Source of the DNA: Escherichia phage vB_vPM_PD114
Sequence record: MH675927.1
Length of the DNA: 64,000 nt
Direction: 5' to 3' (one strand)
The translations under genes and the position numbers were made by a program. Under the pieces are notes generated by a model, which was not told where the DNA came from, made no database searches, and saw only the letters and a program-made list of their open reading frames with translations. Numbering within the stretch: position 1 is the stretch's first letter; each line of letters begins with the position of its first letter. Positions 11,868 to 59,824 of the stretch are shown here, piece by piece.

Positions 11868-11872
11868 CACAT

Positions 11873-11897
11873 AAACCCGCTTCGGCGGGTTTTCTTG
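11873..11897 (+). terminator. rho-independent terminator
   Basis: cccgcTTCGgcggg hairpin followed by TTTTCTTG. Confidence 0.6.
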
Positions 11898-16254: not shown

Positions 16255-16277
16255 CAAAAAACCCGCCGAAGCGGGTT
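16252..16277 (-). terminator. rho-independent terminator
   Basis: aacccgcCGAAgcgggtt hairpin with T-run on - strand. Confidence 0.55.
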
Positions 16278-16281
16278 TATA

Positions 16282-19814: not shown

Positions 19815-20477
19815 TTATTTAATATTCAATTTTGCACAAAGACGTTGTACCGCTTTGGCATCGAACAAACTCCCACGAATAGTTCTCTTTCCTGATTCAT
19901 TCAGATGCTTTGCAATCGTCATATATGGCGTTTTACAAGCTCTGTATGCAACTAAAGAATCTTTTAAAGAAAGCGCAAACTCTTTTGAGCGTTTTGCTTC
20001 TTCCGTTTTCGTATAATCTGTTCTTTTGTATTTAGGGTTTGCTGCACCAAGAAGCGTTCCCTTCGCTTTTGCTACCTTAAGGCTCTTCTTAACACGATCA
20101 GATATTGCACGAGCCTCTTCTTCTGCCAGAACTGCTAAAATATTTATTATCATATTTTCAGCGGAGGGCATAGTTGCTATCCGTACATTAATCATCTCTA
20201 ACAAGGTTGCAACAGAAGCTGTGTTACGTCCAAGACGGTCAACCTTAGCAACAACAAGTGTAGCACCTGTTTCTTTGCAAAGATTAACAGCTTTTACAAG
20301 CTCTCTACGTTGCTTCCAATCGCCTTTACCAGAATAAAACTCTGCAAAGCTACCTACAATAGTATAGTTTTCTTGTGAATCCAGGAAGCGTTGGATATCT
20401 GCTTCCTGTGATTCTATACCATACTGGTTGCCTTGTTGTTTCTTCTTAGAAAGTCGATGATACAGTACAAACTTCAT
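19815..20477 (-). CDS. serine recombinase (resolvase/invertase family)
   Basis: N-terminal YHRLSKKKQ with candidate catalytic Ser, VVAKVDRLGR motif, C-terminal helix-turn-helix-like region. Confidence 0.7.
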   Translation of the reverse strand: MKFVLYHRLSKKKQQGNQYGIESQEADIQRFLDSQENYTIVGSFAEFYSGKGDWKQRRELVKAVNLCKETGATLVVAKVDRLGRNTASVATLLEMINVRIATMPSAENMIINILAVLAEEEARAISDRVKKSLKVAKAKGTLLGAANPKYKRTDYTKTEEAKRSKEFALSLKDSLVAYRACKTPYMTIAKHLNESGKRTIRGSLFDAKAVQRLCAKLNIK

Positions 20478-20534
20478 AATACCCTCCTGTTCTGTTGCAG
20501 GAAGTATGCACTACCTTAATGTTAAAGTCAACAG

Positions 20535-47276: not shown

Positions 47277-47469
47277 CAACAACCTCCATGCGGTGTAAGA
47301 AATCTTGCTGGAATCGCCAATACTGTTGACCAGTCCTTACATCTTCGTAGATCACAACAGGATCAAATACTTTAGATACACCCGCTGGTTTAGGAAAGCC
47401 AACTACACGATATAAACCGCCTTTGCTAATACAAGAATATGTTACATCAGTTAAAATTTCTTTTTTCAT
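47230..47469 (-). CDS. hypothetical protein
   Basis: track ORF; SD ggag. Confidence 0.5.
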   Translation of the reverse strand: MKKEILTDVTYSCISKGGLYRVVGFPKPAGVSKVFDPVVIYEDVRTGQQYWRFQQDFLHRMEVVDGENTEEAIRNKARI

Positions 47470-47663
47470 TTCTTAATAAACTCCAATACAGGTACGTGAT
47501 CAGCAGTTAAAGTTACACAATTGTAACTTACCTTTTCAACTTCAGAGAATGCTTCAACCCATAGCAAGAAATTCTCTTTAGCTTCTTCATAATTCAATGT
47601 TGACTTAACAACATGGAACTCACCAAGGATTACTCTATAGATTGTTTGCATAGTTTGATTCAT
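47466..47663 (-). CDS. hypothetical protein
   Basis: track ORF; SD aaagga. Confidence 0.5.
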   Translation of the reverse strand: MNQTMQTIYRVILGEFHVVKSTLNYEEAKENFLLWVEAFSEVEKVSYNCVTLTADHVPVLEFIKK

Positions 47664-48098: not shown

Positions 48099-48437
48099 TA
48101 TTCCCTCCTGTATGGCTCTGTAACGAGCTAATAGCACCTAAGATATGCAATCACCTTACCTCACAGTAAAACTCGTTACAATCGTTTTTAGGAGGTTCAG
48201 GTTGTACTTAAAAATAATCTAAAAGGTGTTGACAAACGCAAAAAAGTATGCTACCCTAACCCCCGAAAAACGCCGAGCGCAGCGAGGGGGTGTTATCTAA
48301 TCTTGTGATACATGATCTAACAGACAACTGAGTAGTCTACATATAGCACTATGTTATGTCTATAATACTAACATACATGCTCTATACTAACAATAGATTA
48401 TTTATTAATTTTATTATTAATTAAATAATAAATATCT

Positions 48438-56770: not shown

Positions 56771-57999
56771 GTGGCAAGGAAACCTGTCAAACAATCTTTT
56801 GAAAATGTAGATATTGAAGTTAAAGCCCAACCTGGCAAACAAACACTAGCTATGGATCTTATGCCTGAAGTAATGATTTATGGTGGTGCGGCAGGTTGTG
56901 TTTCAGCAGAAACAGAATACTTAACAAGAGACGGTTGGAAACAAATAAGTGAATATGATGGTGAGGATATTTATCAATACAATCCAAGAAACAAACGTCT
57001 TGAATTAGTTACACCATCTTTTGTAGAATATGATGCTAAAGATAATCTGTATTGTATTACAAACGGAGTAGGTGTCTTCCAAGAATTAAGTATGGAACAT
57101 CGCTTTGTTTTCTACAAGAAGAAAAAATCCAAAAAACATTTTGAAATTCTTGTTGGGGATCTTATTGCACTACAGCAAGCAGGACACCCATTACGAGGAT
57201 ATATTGAAAATCCTTTTGGTAAACGTGTTCCGTTTAACATTCAAGGTAAACCTAGCACATATCTAAAAATTCATGAGGTAATGACAAGTGATGATAAGAA
57301 ATATTGCTTTGAAACTCCAAGCAGTTATGTCGTGTTTAGACGTGGCGATCACATCTTCGTTACTGGGAATAGCGGCAAAAGCCGTCTGCTACTTCTAAAA
57401 GCACTTAAATACGCATATAAAGATCCACTGTTTGGTGGTATTCTTTTCCGTAAAAATACAACAGCTTTACGTAAATCTGGTGGTTTGTTTACTGAAGCTA
57501 AAAAACTTTATCTACCATTAAAGCCTCACGTAAGAGAACAGGCTATGGAGATGGAGTTCAGAGCCACAAAAGGTGGCACACTTAAATTTGACCATCTTGA
57601 AAATGATAACGTAACTGCTGAAACTAACCATCAAGGTACACAGTATTCGATGGTAGGGTTTGACGAACTTACACATTTTACACAATATGAAATGCTGTAT
57701 CTGTTAGGGCGTATGCGTTCTGAATCAGAAACATCTTTTATGCTGTGTACTTGTAACCCTGATGCTGACAGTTGGGTGTTGAAATGGGTACTTCCTTATT
57801 TGGATGAAGCTGGTTATCCACGGGAAGATATGTGTGGCAAACAGCTATACTTTCTTATTGTGCAAGATGAACCAGTATTTGCTGAAACAGCAGAAGAGTT
57901 GAAAGAAAAGTATCCTGAAAACTGTTTTATGCAAAACCCAAACACAGGTGAAACAGTGGTTATTGAACCACAAACATTTGTGTTCATTGGTGGAACCAT
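56771..57999 (+). CDS. terL: terminase large subunit, exon 1 (ATPase domain, contains intein)
   Basis: Walker A split as GGAAG | intein | SGKS; track ORF runs to stop at 58009 but inferred 5' splice site follows T at 57999. Confidence 0.65.
56897..57370 (+). other. mini-intein (158 aa) inserted in TerL Walker A loop
   Basis: begins CVSAETEYLTRDG (intein block A-like), internal T..H block (ITNGVGVF..MEHRFV), ends ..DHIFVTGN followed by Ser; excision gives GGAAGSGKS. Confidence 0.65.
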
Positions 58000-58064
58000 T
58001 AATCAATAGTGGCTTTGTGCAGCGATGCACATCGAATAACTTTGTTAATTGCTGGGAAGTCTAT

Positions 58065-58093
58065 TGACAAATAGATAATCAGCAGCTATAATC
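58065..58093 (+). promoter_or_regulatory. sigma70-like promoter inside intron (TTGACA-N17-TATAAT)
   Basis: consensus hexamers about 30 nt upstream of homing endonuclease ATG. Confidence 0.55.
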
Positions 58094-58124
58094 ACTTCTC
58101 CAAAAATATTAGTAGGAGAGTAAA

Positions 58125-58805
58125 ATGAAAAACTTAGATTTCATCGGATACCCGCATTATTGCGCCACATACGATGGTCGTATTTTTAGTTTATACACCC
58201 AAAAATTCCTAAGCGAAAATAAGATGCTTGGAGATTACAAGGGAGTAACCATTTGTGAAAATGGTAACAGGATAGAAGAATTACAGCACAGGTTGATAGC
58301 AAAAGCATTTGTGCCTAACCCTGAAAATAAGCCTTTTGTTAATCACAAAGATGGCAACAAACTTAATAATTGTGCAGACAATCTTGAGTGGACAACAGAA
58401 CAAGAGAATACTCTTCACGCTATGTCCACAGGGTTAAGACGAACAGAAGTCATAAATGACTACAGACCTATTCCAGACACTGTTGCTGTGGAAATTTGCA
58501 AACTGTTAGAGCAAGGATCACGTAACAAAGATATCTGTCAGATGTATAATGTGGCACAATCTGTTGTTAGTGATATAAAAGCTGGCAGAACATATAAAGA
58601 CATTTCACAAGACTTTAACTTTAGAAAAATACCCTCTTCCAACAGAATAAGTGAAGATAAAGTCTTAGGGATTTGTGAAAAGCTGCAAGAAAATATTCTA
58701 TCAATAAATAAAATAGCTAAAAAATACGGCGTAAGTTTTAATGTAGTTAAGAGTATTAAAGATAGGAAAACCTATACGTACTTATCTAATAACTACAATT
58801 GGTGA
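58125..58805 (+). CDS. HNH homing endonuclease (intron-encoded)
   Basis: HNH block HRLIAKAFVPNPENKPFVNHKDGNKLNNCADNLEW; SD taggagag; located inside the terL intron. Confidence 0.75.
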   Translation: MKNLDFIGYPHYCATYDGRIFSLYTQKFLSENKMLGDYKGVTICENGNRIEELQHRLIAKAFVPNPENKPFVNHKDGNKLNNCADNLEWTTEQENTLHAMSTGLRRTEVINDYRPIPDTVAVEICKLLEQGSRNKDICQMYNVAQSVVSDIKAGRTYKDISQDFNFRKIPSSNRISEDKVLGICEKLQENILSINKIAKKYGVSFNVVKSIKDRKTYTYLSNNYNW

Positions 58806-58992
58806 TGTAGTTCAACGACTATCCCGAAAGGGAGTAGGGCAGAAGCAAATGCTGCTCGAAAAGCAAAGCATCTCTTAGGAGATGATGATATAGTCTATTC
58901 TGCACAGTGATGTGCAGCAGTTCATAAGAGAACGTGGAGTAGAGTTGCGACTACTCCAGAATAAAAAGATTTGATAACCCTGAACTAATAAG

Positions 58993-59824
58993 ACTTAACC
59001 CTAAATACTTAGCTTCTTTGAAGGCTCAAACCGCCGTTAAGAGAGCACAGCTTTTAGATGGTTGTTGGTTTGCTCGTGCGCAAGAAGAGAGTTTCTTTAA
59101 CAGAGAATGGTTACACGTTATCAAGTTTAAAGATTTACCAAACAATCTTAAATATATGCGAGCGTGGGATAAAGCAGTATCTGTTCCAACAGAATCTTAT
59201 CGTTATCCTGACTACACAACATCTGTTAAAATGGCTAAAGACTCTGATGGAAATTATTACATTTTTGGTGATTATGATTATGATGCTCACGATGAAGGTA
59301 GTAAAATTTTTGGTAGATTCAGAAGACTACCAGGTGATCGAGATAATTTAATTCTAAACCAATGTAAGATTGATGGAGATGAAGTTACAGTTGTATTGCC
59401 AAAAGATCCTTCTGGTGCTGGTTTGATTGAATATACAGAATCAGCTAAAAAACTAATTGCTGAAGGGTTTGTTGTTAAACCAGACGCTATGCCTGGTAAC
59501 AAGAAAAAGTTACAACGCTTTATGCCATTTAGTAGTGCTTGTCAAAATGGTTTTGTTTATATTGTAGAAGAATCTTTCCCTAATAAAGAAACTCTTGATC
59601 ATTTCTATAAAGAGATGGAGTCGTTTAATGGAGAAAGATCTACAGCAACATTAAAAGATGATATTCCAGATGCTGCTGCATCTTGCTTTAATACTTTGTC
59701 AAAAGAACAGATGTTTAAAGCAGTAGCAATACCTTCTGCAACAAATGCATTAACAGGGTATGGTAAGATGGGTGGAAGATCAAGAAACTCTTTATCTTCT
59801 CCATATAGTATCAGAGGAAGATAA
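58993..59824 (+). CDS. terL: terminase large subunit, exon 2 (nuclease domain)
   Basis: open frame from 58994 continuous with track ORF 59018..59824 (alternative start); acidic DDIPDAAAS motif; joins exon 1 in frame via junction codon ATA. Confidence 0.55.

Follow-up and report, generated by a model that had tools for sequence, protein, structure and literature searches.

On what DNA does a small serine recombinase act in a phage whose genes otherwise look lytic? This question is raised by the gene at positions 19815-20477 (minus strand) of a 64,000-nucleotide stretch of DNA from Escherichia phage vB_vPM_PD114 (MH675927.1), which is termed the window below. The gene encodes a protein of 220 amino acids (aa), in which the catalytic domain of the serine recombinases is followed by a domain that is predicted to be of the type present in large serine integrases. 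Its substrate is tentatively proposed to be a single site per genome, at which DNA between directly repeated copies would be deleted or resolved in replicating phage DNA. This reading, which leans on analogy with relatives, is favoured at well under even confidence, and is ranked above integration and above the programmed inversion of some segment of the phage. The gene is already known and annotated, and its existence is not new. The protein is 100% identical to gp053 of phage phi92 (YP_009012384.1), which has the same neighbours, lies at the same distance from the left genome end, and is annotated as 'DNA invertase / resolvase family' in NC_023693.1. A literature search found no functional study of a gp053-type protein. 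The features of the gene are listed below.

19815..20477, minus strand: recombinase coding sequence, 220 aa (the single open reading frame (ORF) starting with ATG in the ORF listing; PF00239; stop codon at 19815-19817)
20483..20488, minus strand: ribosome-binding site (RBS) GGAGG (from the sequence; an RBS motif is annotated for PHI92_gene_053 in NC_023693.1)
20055..20477, minus strand: catalytic domain with the long helix E, residues 1-141 (alignment and AlphaFold model)
20448..20450, minus strand: codon 10 (TCT), predicted nucleophilic serine (sequence and alignment to Ser10 of gamma-delta and Tn3 resolvases)
19818..20012, minus strand: predicted C-terminal four-helix DNA-binding domain, residues 156-220 (model and PF07508 in relatives)
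20503..20531, minus strand: candidate sigma-70-like promoter TTGACT-17 nt-CATACT (consensus scan of the 57-bp upstream gap)

The first-pass annotation of the window described a 220-aa ORF of the resolvase type at this place, with a candidate catalytic serine in YHRLSKKKQ and a VDRLGR motif. The ORF is exactly as described, with these motifs at residues 6-14 and 79-84 respectively. The family assignment is borne out by the Pfam profile PF00239 (Resolvase, N-terminal domain), of which positions 2-144 of 145 match residues 4-141 with an E-value of 8.4e-22 and a score of 78.3 bits versus a cut-off of 23.3. The best PHROG match is PHROG 125 'DNA invertase' (E 1.3e-31), and PHROG 95 'integrase' is also matched (E 1.5e-25), both over the full length. 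Homologs were collected as 83 clusters at E <= 1e-5, nearly all of 216-248 aa, and 27 of the collected homologs, with 30-88% identity, were used for a family alignment. Q24, E46, G50, R57, D80, R81, L82, R84, E121, R128 and G140 are invariant in this alignment, so that the VDRLGR motif retains D80, R81 and R84 in all 27 members and G83 in all or nearly all, and Y6, R8 and S10 are kept in at least 90% of them. The nucleophilic serine and the catalytic arginines expected of the superfamily (S10, R8, R68 and R71 in gamma-delta numbering) are accounted for by S10, R8 and the DRLGR motif. The family profile matches Tn3 resolvase (4e-17), Sin (8e-17) and gamma-delta resolvase (1e-15) in the PDB, as well as chains of Gin and Hin (1e-14 to 4e-15), and it aligns R8 and S10 of the query onto R8 and S10 of gamma-delta and Tn3 resolvases. 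The serine proposed in YHRLSKKKQ is therefore at the position of the catalytic Ser10 of these enzymes. Judged from the sequence, the gene is real and encodes an intact small serine recombinase, the predicted catalytic constellation of which is complete.

This constellation bears on whether the protein may be a domesticated DNA-binding protein, such as a transcription regulator, which has lost its recombination activity. In favour of this, no substrate was found, and the gene may sit directly behind its own promoter, as the genes of autoregulating resolvases do. On the other hand, R8, S10, D80, R81, R84, E121 and R128 are kept down to 30% identity. Loss of catalysis is disfavoured, because a conserved catalytic constellation is needless for DNA binding alone, and this explanation is considered quite improbable.

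The window covers the left 64 kb of the genome of a strictly virulent, phi92-like myovirus (Justusliebigvirus, Stephanstirmvirinae). Its first 344 bp are the direct terminal repeat, it aligns collinearly with phi92 (95-99% identity), and the closest relatives of its phage are PD06 and PD211 (98.6-99.6% identity). A protein at least 99% identical to the recombinase is present in 55 records, and is 100% identical in most of those listed. The gene of the window differs from that of phi92 by 8 nucleotides, all of them synonymous, and this divergence is like that of the neighbouring genes. The ratio of nonsynonymous to synonymous substitution rates (dN/dS) is 0.08 when the gene is compared with an 82%-identical homolog (L007), and its GC content is 38.9% versus 37% for the genome. 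These comparisons indicate that the gene is under strong purifying selection and is vertically inherited within the genus. Orthologs of Phapecoctavirus are ~57% identical, and more distant relatives are present in large Klebsiella, Vibrio, Shewanella and Cellulophaga phages. The protein falls into a phi92 gp053-like clade, which is recognised by full-length two-domain homology, a length of ~215-245 aa and an origin in large virulent phages; the phage genomes in which its members were found are of 130-155 kb. The first-pass annotation had offered a remnant of a mobile element as one explanation. This is unlikely, because the gene is intact, is wholly synonymous in its differences from that of phi92, is under purifying selection (dN/dS ~0.08) and is conserved as far as the phages of Shewanella and Vibrio. 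Four records named 'Campylobacter phage' (A150, A145, C3 and A110a; MG065639, MG065645, MG065656 and MG065689) share 98% identity with phi92-like coliphages in this region, and are probably mislabelled or contaminant assemblies.

The C-terminal domain distinguishes the protein from the well-known small recombinases. An AlphaFold model built on the family alignment has a mean predicted local distance difference test (pLDDT) value of 86.6. It consists of an alpha/beta catalytic domain with strands at residues 2-9, 39-47 and 73-76 and helix E at residues 108-138, a flexible linker at residues 139-155 (pLDDT ~50), and C-terminal helices at residues 156-170, 172-180, 185-194 and 207-216. The closest solved structure over both domains is that of Bxb1 integrase (9iu2_A, 250 alignment columns), followed by the catalytic domains of Sin. 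In two more distant members of the family, P0078 and P0079, PF07508 'Recombinase' is matched above its gathering score, over positions 5-49 and 17-49, respectively, of the 102 positions of this profile. The C-terminus of the query has no Pfam match, and HTH_7 is absent both in a search with the whole protein at E <= 1 and in a search with the isolated C-terminus at E <= 10. The helix-turn-helix (HTH)-like C-terminal region of the first-pass annotation thus stands in part: the region is helical and HTH-like in the model, but is not an HTH of the Hin/gamma-delta type. No NCBIfam family comes near its cut-off. The best matches are weak and are those of CcrB (positions 10-225 of 542, far under the cut-off), the master invertase Mpi (positions 5-197 of 203, E 3e-8, 33.5 bits versus a cut-off of 272) and the resolvase-like YneB (positions 2-190 of 211, E 4e-7, 29.8 bits versus a cut-off of 175).

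The model, the Bxb1 match and the PF07508 matches of relatives together indicate that the four C-terminal helices correspond to the front part of the 'recombinase domain' found in large serine integrases. The protein is a 'mini' relative of these integrases, in which the catalytic domain is joined to no more than the first helices of the recombinase domain. The chain stops at residue 220, after the four helices, and lacks the zinc-ribbon and coiled-coil modules, which integrases use for the choice of attachment (att) site and for direction. This two-domain form of ~220 aa is common: a scan of 1.84 billion cluster representatives yields 2,556 clusters at E <= 1e-10, and the best 150 of these 2,556 matches are nearly all of 210-240 aa with full-length alignment. 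Structural twins of 226-250 aa are present in other phages and in giant viruses. The ~220-aa architecture is that of a large family of virulent phages, giant viruses and small plasmids, and this is new here.

The relationship to large serine integrases (Bxb1, phiC31, TP901-1, A118 and CcrB) raises the question of whether the protein is an integrase that permits occasional lysogeny or chromosomal integration. Such a role would be in line with the match to PHROG 95 'integrase', with Bxb1 as the best structural match, and with the C-terminal helices, which match the first half of PF07508 in family members. The spacing S-x4-Q ... G-I-x-S-Q of the N-terminal region also appears to be of the integrase type and not of the gamma-delta type, as judged from the TP901-1 and gamma-delta motifs and not from a computed alignment. 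Large serine integrases are, in contrast, ~400-700 aa long, whereas gp053, with its 220 aa, is without the rest of the recombinase domain, the zinc-ribbon and the coiled-coil. Neither att sites nor a prophage state was found for gp053 in the genomes searched. No phi92-like DNA was found in 5,426 complete E. coli genomes, and no close homolog of the recombinase was found in 185,579 bacterial and archaeal species genomes; the best cellular relatives are 28-41% identical. The phi92 genome annotation contains no repressor or other lysogeny-module gene. Lysogeny was rejected, as no prophage copies were found in the genomes searched, and the integrase reading is close to refuted.

The genes around the recombinase agree with the first-pass annotation, which placed it among metabolism and anti-defence genes with no integration module nearby. 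The neighbours, which form part of the early/middle metabolism block of the phage, are all encoded on the minus strand and include genes for PhoH, an HslV-like peptidase, methyltransferases, a phosphatase, a DprA-like protein, Sir2 and nucleotide metabolism; no integrase, att module or transposase is present in this neighbourhood according to the ORFs and the phi92 annotation. A family member of 229 aa is encoded in an apparent prophage of Pseudoalteromonas sp. A601 (L030:4974-5663), beside a tape-measure-like ORF. An adjoining 594-aa ORF appears, when its sequence is read by eye, to be of the tyrosine-integrase type; if so, the small serine recombinase is not the integrase there.

The invertases Hin, Gin, Cin and Pin resemble gp053 in size, in the catalytic domain and in being phage-encoded, and the best PHROG match of gp053 is a DNA invertase. 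They differ from it in that gp053 is without HTH_7 and without an adjacent invertible segment or flanking inverted sites of ~26 bp. The window was searched for repeats, and the whole phi92 genome was compared with itself by short-word BLAST. Terminator hairpins apart, the whole-genome comparison gives no inverted repeat of >25 nt. Its single long repeat is the direct terminal repeat of 343 bp, and the other repeats are promoter and terminator repeats in the right early region. A perfect inverted pair of 23 nt in the window (11871-11893 and 16258-16280) was rejected as a pair of recombination sites, because it is a terminator with a GC-stem and a UUCG-loop at transcription-unit boundaries. The two copies of this terminator lie 4.4 kb apart in opposite orientation, and a third copy is present at phi92 134,750. 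The 55 genomes are collinear over 1-25 kb of the window, over 17-24.5 kb and over the tail-fibre block, and no inversion of tail-fibre genes is seen in them. An invertible tail-fibre segment (phi92 75-100 kb) was rejected, as this region is collinear in all Justusliebigvirus records; the tail-fibre records with two match places represent breaks at record ends or tailspike replacements (J-01 was checked by annotation).

The genomes of phi92 and PD211 are collinear genome-wide save for one inverted segment of ~1.16 kb at phi92 131,090-132,246 (L003:31090-32246, where L003 is a piece of phi92). This segment, which lies outside the window and 110 kb from the recombinase gene, covers gp214-gp216 and the 5' domain of gp217, together with a divergent promoter region. 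Among the 55 Justusliebigvirus records, 32 have the phi92-like orientation and ~23, including W22, PD06/PD211, VEcB NC_052663 and PHB05, have the opposite one, in genomes that are otherwise 95-98% identical. All Phapecoctavirus phages listed share one orientation, opposite to that of phi92 (the segment of 536P1 is L019:25958-27207). The gp217 gene in its phi92 form is phrog_3474 fused in frame to phrog_11295, and these are two separate genes in the other form. The identification of the gp217 N-domain as Tad2/DUF2829 was rejected, as it has no Pfam support.

This segment at first looked like the substrate of a distant-acting invertase, in line with the database label of the gene. Mpi is a small serine recombinase that is able to act on distant loci. 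The genomes of phi92 and 536P1 are collinear save for this segment and the recombinase gene, both orientations occur within one genus, and the inversion re-partitions the two-domain gp217 in a manner that recalls gene-shuffling inversion systems. Against this, the breakpoints are identical in every comparison between the two orientation types. The phi92 junctions contain no inverted repeat of >=9 nt, and the junctions of the ancestral form contain only AGAT/ATCT microhomology. The junctions of the derived form are remodelled, with a new RBS and start codon of gp213, the fusion of the N- and C-domains and the loss of an extra gene, so that neither form can be turned into the other by a simple flip. 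Between the types, the inverted DNA has diverged as much as its flanks (87-97% identity), and no unfused intermediates were found. The single orientation of the listed Phapecoctavirus phages and the distance of 110 kb also argue against this role, as does a pattern that fits one ancient inversion spread by homologous exchange. In contrast to the Mpi system, repeat searches of the window and phi92 gave no dispersed promoters flanked by inverted repeats. A distant-acting invertase with this segment as its substrate is therefore unlikely. As an active switch, the inversion was rejected as unproven, because of its fixed and remodelled junctions, its divergence, and the lack of inverted repeats and of intermediates. 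From the sequences compared, it looks like one old event that is now segregating in the genus, and that the recombinase may or may not have caused. The suggestion of the first-pass annotation that the enzyme inverts a segment elsewhere has thus gained no positive support: the search for inverted-repeat sites in the window and the whole of phi92 gave terminator hairpins only, and the sole inversion looks single and fixed. The label 'DNA invertase' of gp053 is a homology-based name, and is unsupported by any feature tested.

Resolution of replication products, the first-named possibility of the first-pass annotation, is the tentatively favoured reading, with a single site as the proposed substrate. 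The Tn3/gamma-delta and Sin resolvases, which include the best profile matches in the PDB, serve together with plasmid multimer resolvases as the working model for gp053. According to the enzymology of the family, dimers would bind a dyad-symmetric site of ~24-30 bp, and two site-bound dimers would synapse into a tetramer. Ser10 would then cut all four strands, forming 5'-phosphoserine links, and half of the complex would rotate by 180 degrees before the DNA is religated. When the two sites are directly repeated copies in replicating phage DNA, this reaction would monomerise or cyclise replicative forms, or resolve multimers generated by recombination. The analogy comes from small non-mobilisable plasmids of 6-7 kb with Rep and ParA, in which full-length homologs of ~35% identity are the sole recombinase; the role of these homologs is presumed to be multimer resolution. 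The failure of the repeat search to detect any site would be explained by this reading, because a site present in a single copy would escape such a search.

Several observations weigh against resolution at a single site. Repeat searches of the window and of phi92 gave no recombination site, and none was recognised in the upstream gap or in the terminal repeat. The upstream gap, at 57 bp, is far too short for a res with three subsites, and gp053 differs from Tn3/gamma-delta resolvases in having neither a res-like subsite array nor a transposase neighbour, as well as in its C-terminal domain. The upstream spacer is not conserved among homologs of 72-82% identity. Phages with direct terminal repeats package their DNA from concatemers, and resolution into circles is not obviously useful to them. 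The plasmid analogy is weak, because the homologs on plasmids are likewise uncharacterised. A few relatives (Schickermooser and Klebsiella phage 05F01) have a disrupted or truncated gene, and because of these truncated or split copies it is not essential, or is dispensable in some backgrounds. The Vequintavirinae (rV5 and PVP-SE1) are not among the matches listed, which are part of a total of 161, and appear to do without the gene. A site in the terminal repeat was considered and rejected, because the dyad-symmetric motifs there match the Fur-box consensus at 16-17 of 19 positions and are better explained as Fur sites.

A res-like site directly upstream of the gene was also rejected, because the gap contains promoter-like elements and its spacer is unconserved among homologs. 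The elements TTGACT-17-CATACT were found by a consensus scan, in which such matches are not enriched over shuffles in the region. Of the three closer homologs compared, those of 82% and 72% identity have a TTGAC -35 element and a -10 element at the corresponding upstream position, whereas a clear -35 element is missing upstream of the 78% homolog. Because these elements are kept in position and the spacer is not, the gap is taken to be a promoter rather than a res-like site. The recombinase gene is probably transcribed as its own unit from this candidate promoter, because the candidate sigma-70-like elements lie directly upstream.

The location of the gene is conserved within the genus but not beyond it. 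The locus is strictly syntenic in Justusliebigvirus, where the gene lies between gp054 and gp052. When phi92 and 536P1 of Phapecoctavirus are compared over their whole genomes, they are collinear save for two places, namely the recombinase gene and the one inverted segment. In 536P1, the gene is located in the left early block at 103,510-104,172 (L020:3510-4172), on the opposite strand, and is preceded by TTGACA-17-TAAAGT. The homologs of gp054 and gp052 are adjacent in this genome, and a terminator hairpin is present at the 'empty site' where phi92 has the recombinase. The neighbourhood is different again in L012, L014 and Vibrio phages. Conserved cassette ends were sought and rejected, as the copies of Justusliebigvirus and Phapecoctavirus are not homologous beyond the ORF. 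On a long time scale, the gene behaves as a unit of promoter and gene that can be relocated, because it is present at another locus and on the other strand in 536P1, again behind a promoter candidate and with no shared flanks.

Such behaviour would be expected of a selfish, moron-like cassette, in which the recombinase would mainly serve its own relocation and spread between phages. The different loci and strands in the two genera, the clean empty site with its terminator hairpin, the changed neighbourhoods in L012, L014 and Vibrio phages, and the gene's own candidate promoter in both genera are consistent with this explanation. The lack of conserved terminal sequences flanking the ORF between the two genera is not, nor is the strict synteny within Justusliebigvirus, where the gene evolves like its neighbours. 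Moreover, the order PhoH ... HslV-like ... recombinase ... DprA-like is also present in the distant Shewanella phage 1/40. The domain order is also opposite to that of IS607-type serine transposases, in which an N-terminal MerR-like HTH is followed by the catalytic domain, whereas the catalytic domain of gp053 is N-terminal (residues 4-141) and its predicted DNA-binding domain is C-terminal. A selfish cassette is thus a doubtful explanation.

The neighbourhood and the promoter candidate bear on another explanation, in which the recombinase acts on foreign DNA. It would rearrange or excise sequences of the host chromosome, prophages, satellites or plasmids, as an anti-defence or anti-competitor tool. 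The gene lies among accessory and anti-defence-like genes (Sir2, methyltransferases), and its candidate promoter is host-type and would allow early expression. No site pair was found within the phage genome, and a foreign target would explain why the partner site is missing from it. Recombinases are known to matter in conflicts between lytic phages and satellites, for example between ICP1 and PLE (PMC6002521, PMC9638900). Against this explanation, there is no direct evidence for it and no candidate target sequence. Homologs occur in giant viruses as well as in phages that infect E. coli, Klebsiella, Vibrio, Shewanella or Cellulophaga, and a host target common to all of them is hard to imagine because they span so many hosts. 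Action on foreign DNA is accordingly a minor possibility, although it is, with the selfish cassette and the distant-acting invertase, one of the main rivals of resolution.

A similarly modest likelihood is given to a broader proposal, in which the virus-borne gp053-like clade, present in unrelated strictly lytic large-phage lineages and with structural look-alikes in giant viruses, performs a lytic-cycle task that has not yet been ascribed to serine recombinases. Genomes with terminal repeats could, for example, be cyclised or processed in a site-specific manner, or DNA of the host or of competitors could be the target of rearrangement. Occasional off-target activity of the recombinase could then have left the genus-wide 1.16-kb inversion as its footprint.

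Other features were noted in the window and in phi92. The gene for the large subunit of the terminase is split by an insertion of ~970 bp (57999-58970) into 56771-58009 and 59018-59824. Its ORF (58125-58805, plus strand) specifies an HNH_3 endonuclease of 226 aa that has an HTH of the CENP-B type. The insertion is absent from phi92 and PD211, and is probably a homing-endonuclease intron or a free-standing insertion specific to the phage of the window. The N-terminal part of the terminase (56771-57370) contains ~150 extra residues inside its Walker A motif (GGAAG, then CVSAETEYL...FVTGN, then SGKS), and the match to Terminase_6N begins only at residue 201. From their sequence and position, these residues look like a mini-intein.

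Near-consensus Fur boxes, with 16-17 of 19 matches to GATAATGATAATCATTATC, are present at positions 74-92 and 262-295 of the window and at L003:37011-37082, 47462-47480 and 48343-48361. Each copy of the terminal repeat has one, and another, at phi92 147,462, is ~0.8 kb inside the right-end repeat. Two more are located beside AT-rich tandem repeats in non-coding DNA at phi92 ~137.0 kb. The number of matches expected by chance is 0.04-0.07 per sequence. The placement of these motifs suggests that genes near the genome ends may be under iron- or Fur-responsive control. A GC-rich block at phi92 137,112-137,855 (L003:37112-37855), which overlaps gp224, matches 536P1 at >=39 of 40 positions in sliding windows, as compared with an average identity of ~75-80% between these genomes. 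An Rfam search of this block at phi92 137.1-137.9 kb gave no match.

Phage therapy often draws its candidates from phi92-like and phAPEC8-like phages, and matches to recombinases or integrases serve as red flags for a temperate lifestyle. For the gene examined here, the lysogeny flag is probably a false alarm, because the integrase-specific domains are absent and neither DNA of the phage nor a close homolog was found in the bacterial genomes searched. A recombinase that is predicted to be catalytically intact, and that is conserved across virulent lineages with no visible substrate, poses a small question and overturns nothing known. Identification of its substrate could reveal how phages manipulate foreign DNA in a new way, or a step by which genomes that end in direct terminal repeats are replicated.

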